From the NCBI GenBank assembly GCA_043825875.1, contig JBDRRF010000079.1, positions 1 through 64,000 on the forward strand: a stretch of 64,000 nt of DNA, in the 5' to 3' direction. Every line of letters starts with the position of its first letter. The first letter of the stretch is position 1. This stretch comes from Pseudomonadota bacterium. Its GTDB lineage: Bacteria; Desulfobacterota; Desulfobacteria; Desulfobacterales; RPRI01. This document shows, piece by piece, positions 1 to 15,000 of the stretch. The position numbers are program-made.

Positions 1-3000
1 AATATTATCTTTATTTTATAATTATATATGATATTTATCTTGCATAATCTTTAATAATTAATGTTGCATATTATGTTGCTTTAACTTGACACCCCTTTTC
101 CGGTTTTCCTTTCATAAACAATATCATATTTAAATTAATAGATATCTTACTACCACCCTTTTTTGGCACAACCTGTGCTGTTTATTTCCATATTAAATAC
201 GTAAAACATGTTTTTTATAAACGGAGCATTTCAGTTCGCCGAGGGAAACATTTATGGAACATGGAAATAAAATCAAAAAAATCTTAGTTGTAGCTGATGA
301 ATTGGATATACTGATTTTTCTTTCAAATCTATTGCGGGCCGAAGGCTTTGAAGTAGTTGAAGCCGATAATGGTGAACAGGGTTTAGCAAAAGCACGAAAG
401 AATTTGCCTGCCCTTATAATACTTGATGTCATGATGCCAGAAGAATCCGGGATTCAGACTTATCAGGCATTAAAGTATGACAAACGGCTCCAACGTATCC
501 CGGTTATAATGCTTTCGGCAATAAATAAAGAAACTTTTTCCCATTACCAAAAGTTTGAAAGTATAAAGGCAAGGCAAGGGATTCCGGAACCGGAAGCTTT
601 TCTGGAAAAACCGCCGGAAGCAGAAGAACTTATAAATGCCGTGCTTAAATTAATGCCAACGGATAGATATCATGAATAATCATTCTGTAGATCCGAAACT
701 ATATAGTGAAGTTGCAAAATTCGGAGCAATGGATATGGAAATCTGCATGCAGTGCGGAGCATGCAGTGCATCATGCCCTTTGTCTGAAGGAAATAATCCG
801 TTTCCCCGAAAAATATACCGGTATCTCCAGCTTGGCTTAAAAGACAAGCTGCTGAAATCATCCGTGCCATGGATGTGTTATTACTGCGGCGAATGCAACA
901 AGGAATGCCCCAGAGGAGCAGAACCTGCAGAAACCATGATGGCTGCCCGGCGCTGGTTAACTACTCAATACGACTGGACCGGACTTGCCAAAAAGCTTTA
1001 CCTGTCTACAGCCTGGGAAATCGGTGCATTAGCCTCAGTAGCACTTTTTATTGTTTTACTTTTTGTTTTTTTCCACGGCCCAATAATTACCGATCATGTT
1101 TCGGTAAATACATTCGCACCGGTGATCTGGATTGAAATCGGCGATCTGTTGATGGCAACAATACTTTCCACTTTTCTTCTTTCCAATGCATTCAGGATGT
1201 TTCGATATATAATGGGGGACACAAAAGCACCCTTTATGCTTTATATTAAGGAAGCAAAAACATTTATTTTAAACTTTGCAACACAAAAACGCTGGATAAA
1301 GTGCTCAGATGATAAAAGCCGATGGATGAAACACTTTATCCTTGTAACCGGCTATCTTACCATGATGACACTTATCATTGTTTGTATACGATGGTTTCAG
1401 GTAGATGACAGCAGCTGGCATTTTACAAGTATTTTCGGCTACTATGCAACCGCTGTTCTTCTTTTTATAACAGTGGAAATGTTTTTAAGCCGCTTGAAAA
1501 AGCAGGAAACAATCCACAGATACTCAGAGCTTTCCGACTGGCTTTTTCTGATACTTCTTTTTCTTACAACTTTAACCGGAATATTGATGCATATAGTACG
1601 TCTTGCCGGATGGCCCATGGGAACATATGTAACATATGTTATTCATCTTGCGATTGCAGTTCCAATGCTTGTGATTGAAGTTCCTTTCGGAAAATGGTCC
1701 CACATGTTCTACAGACCGTTGGCTCTGTTTTTATCTGCTGTAAAAGATAAGGCATCAAAGGCATCCAGTATAGATATTGAAGAATTAATTGCAAAAGCCG
1801 GTGAAACATTTATGGTATGCCAGCAGTGCGGAACATGCACCAGCGTATGCCCCGTAAATTTAGTTTCAGATTACAGCCCACGCCGTATTTTGCGCAAACT
1901 TGCATTTGATAACGGAACACAGGAATCTGTCGAAAATGCCGCATGGGATTGTCTTACATGCAATACATGCGGTACAAACTGCCCGCGGGGGATAGACATA
2001 ATAGAAGTCATACGTGCTGTAAGAACTCTCAATATATCTTCCGGCAAAATTCATGAATCACTTAAAGCGCCTCTTGAAAGTCTGAAAAAAAACGGCAACC
2101 CATGGAACGAAGATCCTAAGAAGCGAATTGACTGGACAGGCGATTTAAGTATCGTATCTTTTACACCCGAAAACAAATACTGCCTTTTCACATGTTGCAC
2201 AACGGCTTATACTGCCGAAAACCAAAAAGCAGGACGTGCTTTAGTTCAACTTATGGATCATGCCGGAGTTAATTTCGGCACACTTGGCAATAAAGAAAAT
2301 TGCTGCGGCGATATAGCTCATAAGGCAGGTGCAACCGATACATTTAGTGGGCTTGTCACAAAAAACACAGAGATGTTTTTGCATGAAAACGTAAAAACAA
2401 TACTTATAACATCGCCGCATTGTTTAAACTCCTTTAAAAATAACTACCCCGGTTTAAAGGGTCATACAAACTGTGAACACTATACCGAACTTCTTGAAAG
2501 ACTGATTTTAAAAGGCCGTTTAAAACCTGTTGCCAGAATCGAATCAACGGTTACCTATCACGACCCATGCTATCTGGGCCGATACAATAATATTTATGAA
2601 GCGCCGCGCCGCATACTGCAAAGCATTCCAGGGCTTAAGCTCGTTGAAATGGGAAATAACAGAGAAGGCAGCATTTGCTGCGGCGGATTTGGCACAGACG
2701 CCTGGAATAATTACTACAATAATGGCCGGAAAAGCAACCAGCTTGGTATGTTGCGAATAGAAGAAGCGCTTGATACAGGCGCTGAAATACTTGTTACAGC
2801 ATGCCCGTTTTGTGTTCTTACTCTATATGATGCTGTAGAAAAACTTGGTGTAAAACACCGGATAACCGTTACCGATCCGGCACAATTGCTGCTGCAATCG
2901 GTAAATACAGTATATGAAGTTGATATTACAAATAACATCAAGCCGAGTTATAATAAAGAGGTCGTTTATGCCTGATAGAATCGGATTTTATATCTGCCAT

Positions 3001-12000: not shown

Positions 12001-15000
12001 AAACCTGATAAAATCTGAAAAAAAATATTATTCAATATTCAATAATATTCCCAATCCTCTTTTTGTTCTTGATATAAATTCGCTTAACATCCTTGATTGT
12101 AATGAAAGAGTCACATCGGTTTACAGATTTTTGAAAGAAGAAATAATTAATACATCCTTCATGGATCTGTTTATAAAAAAAGAAAAAGTTGATTATACTT
12201 TTAAGATGAAAGCCTATTCAAAATTAAACCGGGTAAAACAATTAACAAAAAGCGGAGAAACTATCATAGTTAATATAGGAATTACTCCATCTGAATATCC
12301 GGGACAGAAAGTTTTACTTGTAGTAACAGATGATATAACAAAACGTCTCGAGGTGGAGCAACAAATAATACAGGCAGGTAAAATGGCAACTCTTGGAGAA
12401 ATGGCAACAGGAATAGCACATGAACTCAACCAACCTCTATCTGTTATTAAAACGGTCAGTAGTTTTTTTATCCGGAAAATAAATGACAATGAGTTGATAG
12501 ATCAAACCACTCTTAACAATATGCTGGTAAAAGTCGACAATAATGTTGATCGGGCATCCCGGATTATTAACCATTTGAGAAATTTCGCCAGAAAATCAGA
12601 AATAGATTTTGAAAAGGTGCAGGTTAATGAAGAACTTGAAAGAGCGTTTTCAATTTTTGCCCAACATCTCAGGGTAAGAGGTATTGAAGTCTTATGGGAT
12701 ATTGACAAGAACTTGCCAATGATTATGGCTGACCCTCAAAGACTCGAACAGGTTTTTATAAACCTATTAATCAACGCAAGGGATGCTATTGAAGAAAAAT
12801 ACAGGAATATGCATTCTGCCGAAGCTGAAAAGACAATCCGTTTAAACACATATATGGATAATAAGAATGTTGTCATTGAAGTATCTGATACCGGAACAGG
12901 AATTCCTGAGGCTATATCCGATAAAATATTTGAACCTTTTTTTACTACAAAGGAAGCCGGAAAGGGCACCGGCCTGGGTTTATCCATCAGTTACGGGATA
13001 ATCAAGGATTTTGGAGGAACAATATGTTCCAGATCCGAAGAGGGTCAGGGAGCATGTTTTATAATTACTCTTCCTGTACAGGATAATAAAAATGGATAAT
13101 CAAATACTGCTGGTTGATGACGAAGAAGATATTCGCGATGTTTTAGGCGTTTATCTGAAAGACAAGGGCTACAGTACACTTCTTGCAGAAAACGGCAATG
13201 AGGCTTTAAATATTTTCAATGAACATGCTCCGCCTATAGTTATTTCAGATATCAAAATGCCTGGTATAGACGGAATTGAACTTCTTAAAAAAATCAAGCA
13301 GGATAAGCCTGACACTGAAATTATAATGATAACCGGCCATGGTGATATGGAACTTGCCATTGCAAGTTTACAAGATCATGCGGCGGATTTTATAACAAAG
13401 CCTATAAACGTAAATATTTTGGATGTGGCTCTTAAGAAAGTAGAAGAAAAAATTATAGCACGAAGGCAGTTAAGAGAATATACCGAAAATCTGGAAAAAT
13501 TGGTTAAGGAAAAATCCGAACTGCAAAGTCATTTGTCTTCTTTAGGACTTATGTTAGGTTCCGTTTCTCATGGCATCAAAGGTCTGCTTACTTGTCTGGA
13601 TGCCGGTATGTACCAGGTAGAATCCGGGTTTTCGAAAGAAAATTCAGCCGAAATTGAAGAAGGCTGGAAAATAGTCAAACTCATGGTTGACCGTATACGA
13701 AGAATGGTTTTAGATATTCTGTATTATGCGAAAGAAAGAGATCTGAACTGGGAAAAAGTGGATGCGTTAAGTTTTTCCGCAGAAGTTGCAGATATTATGG
13801 AGAGAAAGATTACATCTGACGATATTGAATTCATACGTGATTTTGATGATACCCTGGGAAACTTTGAAATCGATACAGGTTGCATAAATTCCGCATTGAT
13901 CAATATTTTCGAAAACGCAGTTGATGCATGCATCAAAGACAAGTCAAATGAAAAACACAAAATCATATATAAGGTATCACAGGATAAGAATAATATCTAT
14001 TTTGAAGTAAGCGATGATGGAACAGGAATGGATGAAGATACACGCAGCAAGCTGTTTACCCTGTTTTTTTCATCCAAAGGCAGCAAGGGAACCGGGCTGG
14101 GTCTTTTTATTTCAAATAAAATAATAGAGCAGCACGGAGGTTCAATCAAGGTGTTTTCAGTGCCGGGACAAGGTTCAAAATTTACTATAAATATCCCGAA
14201 AATAACGGCTTCATAAAATACTATCCCTCAAAGGTTCAGTAATACTGCTTATATGCTTTCTTCCATGGGTCACGGCGAAGTTCTTTAACATTGGCAAGGG
14301 CCAGATACAGCGCTCCTACAGCCAATTCCGCACAATGGAAATGATCTTCAGGCAGGGTTTCTAAATATTGAGCCACATCTTCAGGTATAACATCCCATGC
14401 CTTATCAAGCGTTTTACCTTCTATCATATCAATAATCGTATTAGCGCATGCAACAGTATTAAGGCAGCCGTTAACGTTATAGGAGGCAGTTTCGATAATA
14501 TCACCACGGGTTTTTAAATACAATTCAACGGTATCTCCGCAATCGCCCTCTTTTTTTCCATATCCATCAGGATTTTTTATTATTTCATTTTTATCGATTC
14601 TAAAAGCCATTTCAAGGTATTTAATAGAATGGTTTTGCCAAAAGTTCGATATTTCCGACTTATCTTTTTTTATTTCCATGACAATATTTCATAAAACTTT
14701 TATTATAAATCAAAGTACTAATAATACTCTTCAATTCAGCGCTTACCGCAACAACTTCCCGGTCCCGCACACTGAGCCTGGTTGGGTGAAGTGCCACAGC
14801 AAGCCGTATCATTGGCACCGGGCAATTTCCCAGCCTGCTGGCCCATATAGGACGATGGCTTGGATAGTTGTTTCTCCATATTTTTGCTGCCACAATGTTT
14901 ACATAGGGGCATATCTTTATCAGCAACAATCAGGATTTCAGATGTTTTACCACAATCTAAACAAAGATAATCAAATAATGGCATATTATAACTCCTTTAA

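Follow-up and report, generated by a model that had tools for sequence, protein, structure and literature searches.

The flavoprotein encoded by g02714 carries a complete response-regulator receiver domain (REC) within its HdrA-like electron-transfer core, an arrangement which suggests that a sensor kinase may control an enzyme of energy metabolism directly. The gene lies in the 64,000-nt window (the whole stretch of DNA analysed, from contig JBDRRF010000079.1) as part of an eight-gene operon. All eight ORFs were found where the survey's finding had placed them, on the forward strand, and their Pfam families bear out its designation as an Hdr/Mvh-type operon (Table 1). The families proposed for the neighbouring genes also held, but needed refinement for g02710 (a membrane fusion), g02711 (interrupted by a GltD-like module) and g02714 itself (two halves).

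Table 1. Features of the HdrA-REC operon, with positions in the window.
Feature	Position	Strand	Evidence or remark
Sigma-54-type promoter candidate TGGCAC-N5-GTGC	164..179	+	Begins 90 nt before the operon's first ATG
Single-domain receiver protein, 141 aa	254..679	+	Response_reg, 64.6 bits
QmoC-like membrane domain fused to HdrD/HdrBC-like part (g02710)	672..2975	+	Pfam, NCBIfam, TM prediction
HdrL-type HdrA (archaeal 'type III') with GltD/NfnB-like module (g02711)	2914..6348	+	Pfam, NCBIfam, 5ODC alignment
MvhD/FlpD-type [2Fe-2S] adaptor, 140 aa	6508..6930	+	FlpD, 185.5 bits
FrhB/FdhB-like iron-sulfur protein, 381 aa	6949..8094	+	FrhB_FdhB_C, 32.3 bits, and Fer4
Tandem HdrA-like flavoprotein with inserted receiver, 1155 aa (g02714, P0001)	8104..11571	+	Pfam, 5ODC alignment, homologue alignment, AF2 model
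Inserted ferredoxin domain, only one in the protein, aa 113-185	8440..8658	+	Fer4 x2
Receiver domain, CheY-type, aa 191-306; Asp240 codon 8821-8823	8674..9021	+	Pfam, alignment, AF2
HdrA N-terminal-domain-like segment, aa 587-687, before second half	9862..10164	+	Aligns weakly with residues 4-104 of 5ODC chain A
Second HdrA-like half, aa 741-1155: FAD fold and C-terminal ferredoxin domain	10324..11568	+	Pfam, NCBIfam, 5ODC alignment
Cytoplasmic PAS-PAS-HisKA-HATPase histidine kinase, 497 aa	11606..13099	+	Pfam, NCBIfam, TM prediction
Receiver-kinase hybrid, 374 aa, His-box (SVSHG) and HATPase	13092..14216	+	Pfam, NCBIfam

Pfam analysis confirmed the architecture described earlier for g02714, an HdrA-type FAD/iron-sulfur protein with a receiver, but the protein comprises two fused HdrA-like halves rather than a single HdrA. 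FAD/NAD folds are present at aa 8-42 and 744-869, Fer4 motifs at aa 113-180 and Fer4_10 at aa 1086-1132. Each half retains a flavin fold with the FAD-adjacent Cys motif, together with equivalents of methanogen K409/E356 (K408/E355 in half 1; K917/E875 in half 2, the latter by motif). The inserted ferredoxin domain of half 1, alignable up to residue 313 of 5ODC chain A, has eight Cys (118/121/124/128 and 165/168/171/175) that are all present in 121/121 close homologues; half 2 has the Cys 896/907/911/912 motif and lacks an inserted ferredoxin domain. The Cys197 equivalent, C59, is in the half without an N-domain, and the N-domain-like segment (Cys 594/596/629/654, kept in 120-121 of 121 homologues) precedes the half without that Cys. 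According to the available portion of PMC9012536, this complementary split is the pattern of heterodimeric or fused HdrA, and the inserted ferredoxin domain of HdrA is the ferredoxin branch. As judged from these alignments, two complementary HdrA halves are fused in the product into a pseudo-dimer, which would account for its having a single N-domain cluster and a single ferredoxin domain of each kind, inserted and C-terminal.

The best sequence match of HdrA-REC was 5odc_A (E 4e-109), and its AF2 model (pLDDT 76.8, pTM 0.79) gave fold matches of up to E 5e-43, with a target-normalised TM of 0.69 for 8rvy_A and 7bkd_A. HdrA of the methanogen HdrABC-MvhAGD complex and its relatives (PDB 5ODC, 8RVY, 7BKB/7BKD, 9SFI) thus share with it the thioredoxin-reductase-like flavin fold, the ferredoxin domains, the N-terminal cluster domain, the Cys motif beside the FAD and the K409/E356 pair. 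In contrast to methanogen HdrA, the two halves here are in one chain with the accessory domains divided between them, a receiver of 130 aa takes the place of the link from residue 313 to residue 318, and the bacterial host is not expected to produce CoM-S-S-CoB. Scores against the NCBIfam models for HdrA (528, cut-off 1400) and HdrA2 (668, cut-off 1100) were both far under threshold.

The receiver was complete, as claimed: Response_reg matched aa 192-301 over profile positions 1-110/111 (105.8 bits against a cut-off of 30.2, E 1.7e-30), and the motifs quoted for it were located at aa 194 (VVDDE), 238 (LLDIMMPDMDG), 266 (MMTAY) and 289 (VKPF). The intact phospho-acceptor set, D196, D197, D240, T268 and K290, is invariant in 121/121 close homologues, as are A269 and P291. 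Across these homologues, mean column conservation was 0.874 for REC and 0.59-0.88 for the other domains, which ranks REC with the most conserved regions of the protein. In the AF2 model, REC forms a regular alternating five-strand/five-helix fold with short linkers (pLDDT mostly 75-89). The insertion site corresponds to a 4-residue link of canonical HdrA immediately after the inserted ferredoxin domain, given that query aa 7-185 align with residues 145-313 of 5ODC chain A and aa 316-510 with residues 318-511. REC would therefore adjoin the ferredoxin arm in sequence, its first strand beginning 16 residues past the last cluster Cys. The best NCBIfam matches of REC were AtoC, ZraR, FixJ and NtrC. 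Its identity to the two neighbouring receivers at the locus is no more than 32-33%, and to that of a sigma-54 activator whose gene lies elsewhere in the same genome it is 49%.

Our best reading, to which we give an even chance of being correct, is that a sensor kinase phosphorylates REC and so exerts direct control over the low-potential arm of the enzyme. The inserted ferredoxin domain forms the low-potential arm to ferredoxin in methanogen HdrA, and the receiver here would sit at the hinge through which the chain passes from that arm back to the flavin domain. Phosphorylation of Asp240 by a sensor kinase might elicit the usual receiver conformational change, by which the adjacent ferredoxin arm would be moved, locked or uncovered and low-potential electron flow turned on or off post-translationally. 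Terminal receivers covalently joined to a hydrolase or cyclase output are found in CheB, PleD and RpfG, where phosphorylation acts without transcription because of that covalent link; unlike these, the receiver here is inserted internally, in a redox flavoprotein with several cofactors.

Conservation in Desulfobacterales, reported by the survey's finding for fewer genomes, was reproduced on a larger sample: 94/201 genomes match at E<=1e-40, comprising 87 with the whole ferredoxin-REC-flavin junction (reading frames mostly of 1130-1260 aa), three cut by contig ends and four with REC-only paralogues. The junction is found in 90/201 sampled genomes of the order. Among the 150 best 50%-cluster representatives, 94 have a junction of 2-6 residues and 13 a REC of 127-145 aa. 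In a 118-row tree, all 10 REC rows fell inside one 12-row group (support 93), so that the REC-bearing representatives all belong to a single subclade of a broader tandem-HdrA family without REC, and the insertion has a single origin. Nested within the REC clade, P0124 and P0129 are two lineages that lost REC, and one representative (P0125) has a degenerate receiver at the same place, lacking the second acidic residue, Thr and Lys of the five signature residues. Most relatives run the core enzyme with no REC (94 of the 150 representatives); together with the two losses and the degenerate copy, this makes REC dispensable and able to decay, a point against the preferred reading. The persistence of the domain in P0125 and its absence from two lineages would fit a REC that is never phosphorylated in vivo and serves as a mere spacer or scaffold beside the ferredoxin arm. 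We regard such a structural role as highly improbable: the five catalytic residues are invariant in the 121 close homologues and present in each of the seven further full-length REC representatives of the alignment, REC is conserved to the same degree as the FAD-binding fold, and kinase genes are linked at about three quarters of loci.

Around HdrA-REC, the conserved operon core consists of an HdrL-type HdrA with a GltD insert, MvhD (46/48 loci with enough upstream sequence), an FrhB-like protein (gene immediately upstream of HdrA-REC in 48/50 loci) and HdrA-REC, accompanied by either a QmoC-HdrD membrane fusion, as in this window, or soluble HdrC and HdrB. The first redox gene of the operon, g02710, is by its predicted domains such a membrane-anchored fusion, with a two-cluster Fe-S part, six predicted TM helices at aa 117-337 and an HdrD/HdrBC-like part (Fer4 at 383-441, two CCG domains up to 718); its membrane domain scored 229.6 bits to NF038018, under the cut-off of 300. 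Orthologues of the fusion were found at 8/54 related loci, with a ninth (L002) in fragments, and the fusion never occurred in the same locus as separate HdrC/HdrB genes. The product of g02711 matches 5odc_A with 681 bits; its inserted ferredoxin domain is split, between the positions of residues 290 and 293 of 5ODC chain A, by the GltD/NfnB-like NAD(P)H module (~aa 303-790). The true start of g02711 probably lies a few codons downstream, since alignments with orthologues begin at aa 12-13.

From this gene content, HdrA-REC is probably the core flavoprotein of an Hdr-like electron-bifurcating or confurcating complex, in which HdrL with its NAD(P)H module, MvhD, the FrhB-like protein, tandem HdrA and QmoC-HdrD would be members and QmoC-HdrD would act as the membrane-anchored disulfide/quinone module. 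Instead of gating electrons within the subunit, phosphorylated REC might dimerise, or dock via its alpha4-beta5-alpha5 face to another subunit or a second complex, and so determine whether the multi-subunit complex or a supercomplex forms. The complex has numerous partners, their genes tightly conserved around it. In receivers of the NtrC/AtoC class, to which REC and its nearest paralogue, the sigma-54 activator receiver, belong, phosphorylation acts via a change in oligomer state. Hdr-type complexes are moreover obligate dimers or large assemblies, as described in the available parts of PMC9012536 and 10.64898/2026.04.10.717634. However, the fused halves already supply a dimer in one chain, and the hinge insertion point is more specific than a docking tag requires; we consider phospho-dependent assembly unlikely.

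We also examined the signalling genes. An orthologue of the PAS kinase was encoded within ~8 kb downstream at 38 of the 50 loci whose downstream sequence spans 4 kb or more, with none in the DNA fetched at the other 12/50, and an orthologue of the receiver-kinase hybrid was present at 34/50. The kinase in this window lacks the ~270-aa N-terminal sensor and HAMP part found in orthologues. The single-domain receiver, whose acidic pair reads AD instead of DD, shares 33% identity with the HdrA receiver and scored 74.7 bits to NF045717 (DVU0259_DivK), under the cut-off of 160. The linkage supports a conserved neighbourhood of kinases but does not make the PAS kinase the operon's own: its family occurs in 143/201 genomes, some without HdrA-REC, where it sits in kinase/receiver/Usp cassettes. 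REC is closer to sigma-54 activator receivers than to its neighbours, and the adjacent kinases may serve other receivers.

This signalling cassette, which stands alone in those genomes, could point to information flowing in the opposite direction, with the flavoprotein as sensor and the redox state of its clusters or flavin altering gain or loss of phosphate by REC. HdrA-REC would then be a redox-dependent phosphate sink or relay tuning a kinase/hybrid-kinase/single-receiver cascade and, through it, sigma-54-dependent transcription. The presence of a kinase, a hybrid and a single receiver at the locus is typical of branched relays, and a Usp-REC-Usp protein beside 3/54 operons, its receiver 56-67% identical to that of HdrA, suggests several receivers competing for one kinase. 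Yet a double flavoprotein of 1000 aa, its cofactor motifs all conserved and its gene in a conserved redox operon, would be a costly sensor, REC-less orthologues retain the same operon, and no Hpt domain or dedicated downstream acceptor was found, making this direction of flow distinctly unlikely.

The sigma-54 promoter consensus is TGGCAC-N5-TTGC, from which the candidate upstream of the first gene differs at one position. Window-wide, motifs with at most two mismatches were not above chance (39 against 49.9 expected). At 13/39 related loci, a strict motif lies in the 700 bp preceding the first gene of the operon, with a background of 0.020 per kb per strand, and the motif is identical in the same-genus loci L081 and L082. 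Activator genes were found at 24/54 loci; neither the operon genes nor the ORFs scanned in this window, up to 34.5 kb, include a DNA-binding regulator. Under the preferred reading of REC as a gate on the ferredoxin arm, the enzyme-level switch would operate on top of sigma-54/activator control of transcription.

Several described systems resemble parts of this one. By the description in the available text of 10.64898/2026.04.10.717634, BamE of class II benzoyl-CoA reductase is also a bacterial fused HdrA dimer, partnered by BamF, an MvhD-like adaptor, and BamD, an HdrD-like CCG subunit, in a complex where cofactors are moved by conformational states and the low-potential branch exits via extra [4Fe-4S] clusters. 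BamE differs in having no receiver (the word occurs 0 times in that text) and a second FAD without Lys that is called non-bifurcating, whereas Lys is present in both halves here; BamB/C and BamGHI genes are absent from this locus. Type II (fused) HdrA of methane-metabolising archaea, as far as covered by the accessible parts of PMC12054007 and PMC9012536, likewise has two flavin domains with a complementary N-domain/Cys197 and adjoining FdhB/FrhB-like and MvhD genes, and type III resembles HdrL with its GltD/NfnB module breaking the inserted ferredoxin domain. The half order is reversed relative to ANME HdrA3/4, the Cys197-bearing half without N-domain being first here, and the present protein is bacterial and has a receiver; no receiver is mentioned in those parts of either paper, 'receiver' and 'response regulator' both occurring 0 times in that of PMC12054007.

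By its description, the hdrL/hdrA4 locus VIII of Desulfobacterium autotrophicum HRM2 (PMC2702500) has tandem hdrL/hdrA with mvhD, an fdhB-like gene and HdrB/HdrC orthologues, unlike the membrane-anchored QmoC-HdrD variant here. The Fig. 4 legend of that paper, covering all Hdr loci drawn, lists 'response regulator', 'histidine kinase' and 'CheY-like regulator' genes, and the legend of supplementary Fig. S3a/b lists 'response regulator receiver' among Hdr-protein domains, the carrier protein not being readable from it; the main text uses 'receiver' 0 times and proposes no role. Apart from this 2009 listing of the domain, we found no discussion of a receiver role in HdrA in the literature searched. 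Desulfovibrio FlxABCD-HdrABC, in the available part of PMC6491731, has the same kind of proposed job, namely NAD(P)H-linked bifurcation whose electrons go to ferredoxin and a disulfide (DsrC). It likewise uses an MvhD-like adaptor, and in strains described there the Flx-Hdr genes have a PAS kinase and an NtrC-family regulator encoded nearby. In Flx-Hdr the signal acts on transcription only, in contrast to the NtrC-type receiver within the enzyme here, where Flx subunits are absent and the NAD(P)H module is inside HdrL. If the gating of HdrA by its receiver is true, this sulfate-reducer-type bacterium would have a two-component switch built into an electron-splitting enzyme.

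Flavin-based electron bifurcation is the route by which strict anaerobes obtain low-potential ferredoxin at the thermodynamic limit, and we know of little regulation of bifurcating enzymes beyond that of transcription. Eight plus-strand ORFs lie head to tail between positions 254 and 14216 of the window, separated by no more than 160 nt and overlapping twice by 8 nt, and the sixth encodes HdrA-REC (P0001), a tandem HdrA-like flavoprotein that carries a receiver domain. The contig begins at window position 1, which sets the upstream limit of our view of the operon; the genes beyond 14216 are convergent or unrelated, and no gene for a DNA-binding regulator was found among the window genes from 14216 up to 34.5 kb. 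At 30423-34467, the minus strand carries three neighboring genes that bear no relation to HdrA-REC; their products are an AMP-binding enzyme, a radical SAM protein with B12-binding domain and an FAD-dependent oxidoreductase. In the single-domain receiver encoded by the first ORF, the acidic pair reads Ala-Asp instead of the usual Asp-Asp, and the loop ahead of helix 4 is extended.

Genes of the operon (window nucleotides) and segments of HdrA-REC (amino acids)
Feature	Position	Strand	Basis or match
Single-domain receiver	254-679	+	Pfam/NCBIfam
QmoC-like Fe-S/membrane domain fused to HdrD-like part (Fer4 and two CCG domains)	672-2975	+	Pfam/NCBIfam
Complete HdrA with interrupting GltD/NfnB-like NAD(P)H module	2914-6348	+	Pfam/NCBIfam
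MvhD/FlpD	6508-6930	+	Pfam/NCBIfam
FrhB/FdhB-like Fe-S protein	6949-8094	+	Pfam/NCBIfam
HdrA-REC (P0001), 1155 aa	8104-11571	+	Pfam/NCBIfam
PAS-PAS-HisKA-HATPase kinase	11606-13099	+	Pfam/NCBIfam
Receiver-kinase hybrid	13092-14216	+	Pfam/NCBIfam
HdrA-REC, N-terminal-domain-like segment	aa 587-687		weak match to HdrA 4-104
HdrA-REC, second FAD fold	aa 744-869		
HdrA-REC, C-terminal ferredoxin domain	aa 983-1153		matches HdrA 476-649

The QmoC-like domain of the second product has six predicted transmembrane helices and scored 229.6 bits against the QmoC equivalog NF038018, below the cut-off of 300 despite covering positions 4-358 of the 360 in the profile; we class the protein as no more than QmoC-like, with an HdrD-like fusion part. 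With its two CCG domains (98.7 bits), it is a CCG-domain (HdrB/HdrD-type) protein encoded next to HdrA. In the third product, the GltD/NfnB-like module is inserted at the equivalent of residues 290/293 of a methanogen HdrA used as reference (5ODC chain A), and the same architecture is described for 'HdrL' of Desulfobacterium autotrophicum (PMC2702500) and for archaeal 'type III' HdrA (PMC12054007). A single insertion point for this module and the receiver of HdrA-REC was considered and rejected, the receiver falling between 5ODC residues 313 and 318.

In a PDB sequence search, aa 7-185 of HdrA-REC matched residues 145-313 of 5ODC chain A, a stretch that takes in the early flavin domain plus the inserted ferredoxin domain. 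Aa 316-510 matched residues 318-511, with the receiver occupying the 130 residues in between, and a second HdrA-like unit makes up the remainder. Half 1 holds the sole inserted ferredoxin domain and C59, the equivalent of Cys197, and has no N-domain, while half 2 is preceded by the sole N-domain, ends in the sole C-terminal ferredoxin domain and lacks a Cys equivalent to Cys197. Both halves contain a thioredoxin-reductase-like FAD fold and an adjacent [4Fe-4S] Cys motif, C385/398/402/403 in half 1 (121/121 homologues) and C896/907/911/912 in half 2 (118/121). The pair K409/E356 of the 5ODC protein, at flavin N5, is given as the mark of a bifurcating HdrA in one survey (PMC12054007). By HMMER alignment to 5ODC, its counterparts in half 1 are K408 and E355, both invariant (66/66); for half 2, likeness of motif alone, a weaker basis, points to K917 (invariant) and E875 (at least 90%). 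The best structural matches of an AF2 model of HdrA-REC, built from 66 homologues (mean pLDDT 76.8, pTM 0.79), were HdrA chains. Bit scores were below the NCBIfam equivalog cut-offs both for HdrA2 (667.5 vs 1100) and for HdrA (528.4 vs 1400), and the protein is HdrA-like, not an equivalog; its complex would probably bifurcate or confurcate electrons and may reduce a heterodisulfide. With two flavin domains in one chain and a complementary N-domain and Cys197, it conforms in architecture to a fused (type II) HdrA. According to Chadwick et al. (PMC9012536), the tandem and fused HdrA of ANME archaea has the same complementarity, but the halves stand in the reverse order in HdrA-REC.

The survey's finding had described the inserted domain as a complete CheY-like receiver, and this description is borne out by a full-length match to Response_reg (PF00072) at aa 192-301, which scored 105.8 bits (cut-off 30.2) and spanned positions 1-110 of the 111 in the profile, and by the presence of all signature residues, compared with D12, D13, D57, T87 and K109 of CheY. 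Among PDB entries, the receivers of Spo0F, NtrC1 and CheY matched at E values of 1e-14 to 1e-20, and FixJ also matched. The homologue search gave 7160 sequences at E ≤ 1e-10. D196, D197, D240, T268, A269, K290 and P291 are unchanged in all 121 family members examined, which are 64-95% identical over aa 100-420; because the query that retrieved these homologues included the receiver, its presence in them is partly circular, a reservation that does not touch the unchanged acceptor residues. Mean column conservation in this set is 0.874 for the receiver and 0.879 for the first FAD fold, compared with 0.59-0.80 for every other part. As modeled, the receiver is a regular fold of five strands (191-195, 215-219, 236-240, 263-268 and 286-289) alternating with five helices (199-211, 222-231, 248-258, 273-282 and 294-306), assigned by DSSP on the AF2 model. 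That a domain with these unchanged residues is purely structural seems to us very improbable.

In methanogen HdrA, according to PMC9012536, the inserted ferredoxin domain takes low-potential electrons to ferredoxin along a path that runs via the N-domain cluster completed by Cys197 of the partner. HdrA-REC has exactly one such low-potential path, and its receiver, as placed by sequence, sits at the hinge where the ferredoxin arm rejoins the flavin domain. Because of this single path and the position at the hinge, we favor a model in which phosphorylation at D240 would move, lock or uncover the ferredoxin arm and so switch the low-potential branch. We see the case for direct post-translational control through the receiver as evenly balanced and have less confidence in arm gating specifically. 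Hdr-type enzymes depend on large domain motions, observed most recently in the fused-HdrA subunit BamE (preprint 10.64898/2026.04.10.717634); BamE is a bacterial fused HdrA but, unlike HdrA-REC, has no receiver. Phosphorylation might instead govern assembly of the complex, which we consider unlikely. If the receiver does gate the arm, the cell could couple or uncouple bifurcation within seconds by phosphorylating it.

To follow the spread of the insertion, we used the junction of ferredoxin domain, receiver and flavin domain (aa 150-331), which had matches at E ≤ 1e-40 in 94 of the 201 genomes sampled from the order, representing 68 of 125 genera; by our own count, 87 of these genomes hold the whole junction in long frames, three are cut by contig ends and four have receiver-only paralogues. 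A phylum-wide sample gave matches in 8 of 401 genomes, four of them labeled as outside the order. The tandem HdrA family is much larger than the receiver-bearing set, as judged from an exhaustive search of 50% cluster representatives: among the best 150 representatives, the junction held 2-6 residues in 94, a receiver of 127-145 aa in 13, and a GltD-like insert of 282-321 aa in five or 468-499 aa in 18, and it was not placeable in 20. In a FastTree phylogeny of 118 full-length rows, calculated with the insert left out and without archaeal type II HdrA sequences, all 10 receiver-bearing rows fell into one 12-row group (support 93) with two receiver-less rows, P0124 and P0129, nested inside; P0124-type relatives have the short link. 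Three changes are needed to place the receiver label on this tree, whose well-supported branches are compatible with a single origin. The representative P0125 has a degenerate receiver (aa 185-315) at the same insertion site, with the second acidic residue, the Thr and the Lys replaced and the acceptor Asp retained, and P0129, its sister row, is without an insert. On the basis of the tree and of this degenerate domain, we conclude that the receiver is a late add-on to a working enzyme, strongly retained in most of the clade and occasionally lost or decayed.

The gene neighborhood was compared across 54 non-duplicate related loci, with denominators restricted to loci with enough sequence and with HdrC and HdrB identified by Pfam. 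An FrhB-like gene is directly upstream of HdrA-REC in 48/50 loci, and MvhD and HdrL genes are present in 46/48 and 43/48, respectively. HdrC and HdrB genes directly downstream were found in 42/51 loci; in 9/51 (eight whole, one in fragments) a QmoC-HdrD fusion, the form in the window's genus, is found upstream in their place, and none of the 51 loci has both. Linkage to the kinase, which the survey's finding had left unchecked in other genomes, proved widespread: among loci with at least 4 kb of downstream sequence, an orthologue of the PAS kinase (≥ 40% identity over ≥ 60% of the length) is encoded in 38/50 and one of the hybrid kinase in 34/50.

Several loci depart from this arrangement. In L086 (genome G146), HdrA-REC is accompanied by HdrC and HdrB, with no HdrL, MvhD or FrhB-like genes in the 8.5 kb upstream and no kinase in the 8 kb downstream. 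In L007 (6373-8015), HdrB is followed by genes for a TetR-family regulator and ETF, with no kinase inside 4.3 kb. Since ETF docks on the HdrD-like BamD, according to the BamE preprint (10.64898/2026.04.10.717634), by analogy it might be the high-potential acceptor in some HdrA-REC complexes. The FrhB-like gene ends 1.4-1.6 kb ahead of HdrA-REC in L001, L002 and L083, and a sigma-54-like motif lies 160-370 nt upstream of HdrA-REC in the latter two, an arrangement that suggests a separately driven unit of HdrA-REC and kinase. The QmoC-HdrD, HdrL and MvhD genes of L002 (409-6501) match in several shifted pieces, probably reflecting frameshifts of long-read assembly rather than decay.

The PAS kinase encoded next to HdrA-REC has 497 aa and is without the N-terminal part of about 270 aa, including HAMP, found in orthologues; the long orthologues have about 760-780 aa (763-781 aa in L001, L009 and L041), of which some 210 aa make up the N-terminal part, in addition to HAMP. 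Of three same-genus genomes, two encode a short kinase (frames of 523 and 514 aa) and the third a long one (767 aa); the short kinases of the window and these two genomes begin 35-49 nt past the HdrA stop. Given about 500 aa here and 760-780 aa elsewhere, the sensor and HAMP part has been lost in the window's lineage. In genomes without HdrA-REC, this kinase is found in separate cassettes with a hybrid kinase, a single receiver and Usp proteins. Assignment of the kinase by phylogenetic profile failed, with the family in 143/201 genomes (E ≤ 1e-80) and two paralogues, one beside HdrA-REC and one in a separate cassette, both 52-60% identical to the window's kinase. Two genomes that seemed to have the kinase without HdrA-REC (G004 and G011) in fact have contig breaks within the HdrA gene.

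Identity between the HdrA receiver and its two neighboring receivers in the window is 32-33%. The closest paralogue of the HdrA receiver in the genome (49-50% identical) belongs to a sigma-54 activator of contig C8, encoded in a cluster (10977-15469; L135 478-4970) with a PAS kinase, an M54 peptidase and a GcvH-like (GcvH-domain) protein. In genome G095 (L137), a homologous cluster, with an activator 53% identical, lies directly upstream of the HdrA operon. By eye, the first helix of the HdrA receiver resembles that of the C8 activator, and the adjacent kinase and the C8 kinase differ in their DHp helices; the comparison singles out no kinase. Receivers of Usp-REC-Usp proteins are 56-67% identical to the HdrA receiver (67% in L004); their genes are found 1.5-1.7 kb downstream of HdrA-REC in 3/54 loci (L004, 14719-16038 on the minus strand; L099; L100). 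Phosphorylation of the HdrA receiver, by a histidine kinase or a small phospho-donor, is a prediction from kinase gene linkage. Alternatively, the flavoprotein might act as a redox-sensing phosphate sink for the kinase cascade, a role that we regard as distinctly unlikely.

A near-consensus sigma-54-type promoter candidate, TGGCAC-N5-GTGC, was found at window positions 164-179, 90 nt ahead of the first ATG, and is kept in the same-genus loci. Of the 39 loci with upstream sequence, 13 have the strict motif in the 700 bp ahead of the first operon gene, compared with about 0.5 expected from a background of 0.020 per kb per strand, and activator-like genes are present in 24/54 loci. No RNA sequencing run containing the stretch was listed, a result that carries no information on expression. 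Window-wide, the sigma-54 consensus with up to two mismatches was not enriched (39 vs 49.9 expected), and the site at 164 is notable only because of its position and its conservation across loci. Sigma-70-type promoter candidates in the window were at chance level (41 vs 42.3 expected), and terminator-like sites were somewhat above shuffled sequence (23 vs 13.2 expected), none of them marking a clear operon boundary. Together, the near-consensus site, the recurrence of the motif and the activator genes point to an operon that is probably also under sigma-54/activator control. This fits the genes for PAS kinases and NtrC-family regulators near the FlxABCD-HdrABC genes of Desulfovibrio-group strains, as described in PMC6491731. 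The related receiver on the sigma-54 activator, for which the same kinase might be the phosphate source, would then set the amount of enzyme. That a two-component signal directly switches the bifurcating complex, the phospho-receiver opening or closing the sole low-potential (ferredoxin) arm and the activator receiver setting enzyme amount, is a combined scheme we offer tentatively and would not yet count on.

No discussion of a receiver in HdrA was found in the full-text literature searched, which does not extend to subscription journals, and 'receiver' occurs 0 times in one survey of HdrA architectures (10.1101/2024.09.26.615249) and in another (PMC12054007). In the 2009 D. autotrophicum genome paper (PMC2702500), a 'response regulator receiver' domain is named in the legend of supplementary Fig. 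S3a/b, which deals with Hdr proteins, and regulator and kinase genes are named in the Fig. 4 legend, which serves all Hdr loci drawn; the text is silent on the receiver and proposes no role. Public annotations of the family read 'response regulator', 'FAD-dependent oxidoreductase' or 'heterodisulfide reductase subunit A', none of which conveys the fusion. The architecture is thus visible in databases without explanation, and HdrA-REC combines two known kinds of protein, a response regulator with enzymatic output and a fused HdrA. For structural work, HdrA-REC could provide a naturally 'switchable' Hdr module. If correct, our proposal would represent the first post-translational kinase control of electron bifurcation, applying in nearly half (~45%) of the sampled Desulfobacterales genomes, and would open signal-controlled electron routing to direct test in sulfate reducers that are abundant in marine settings and groundwater.
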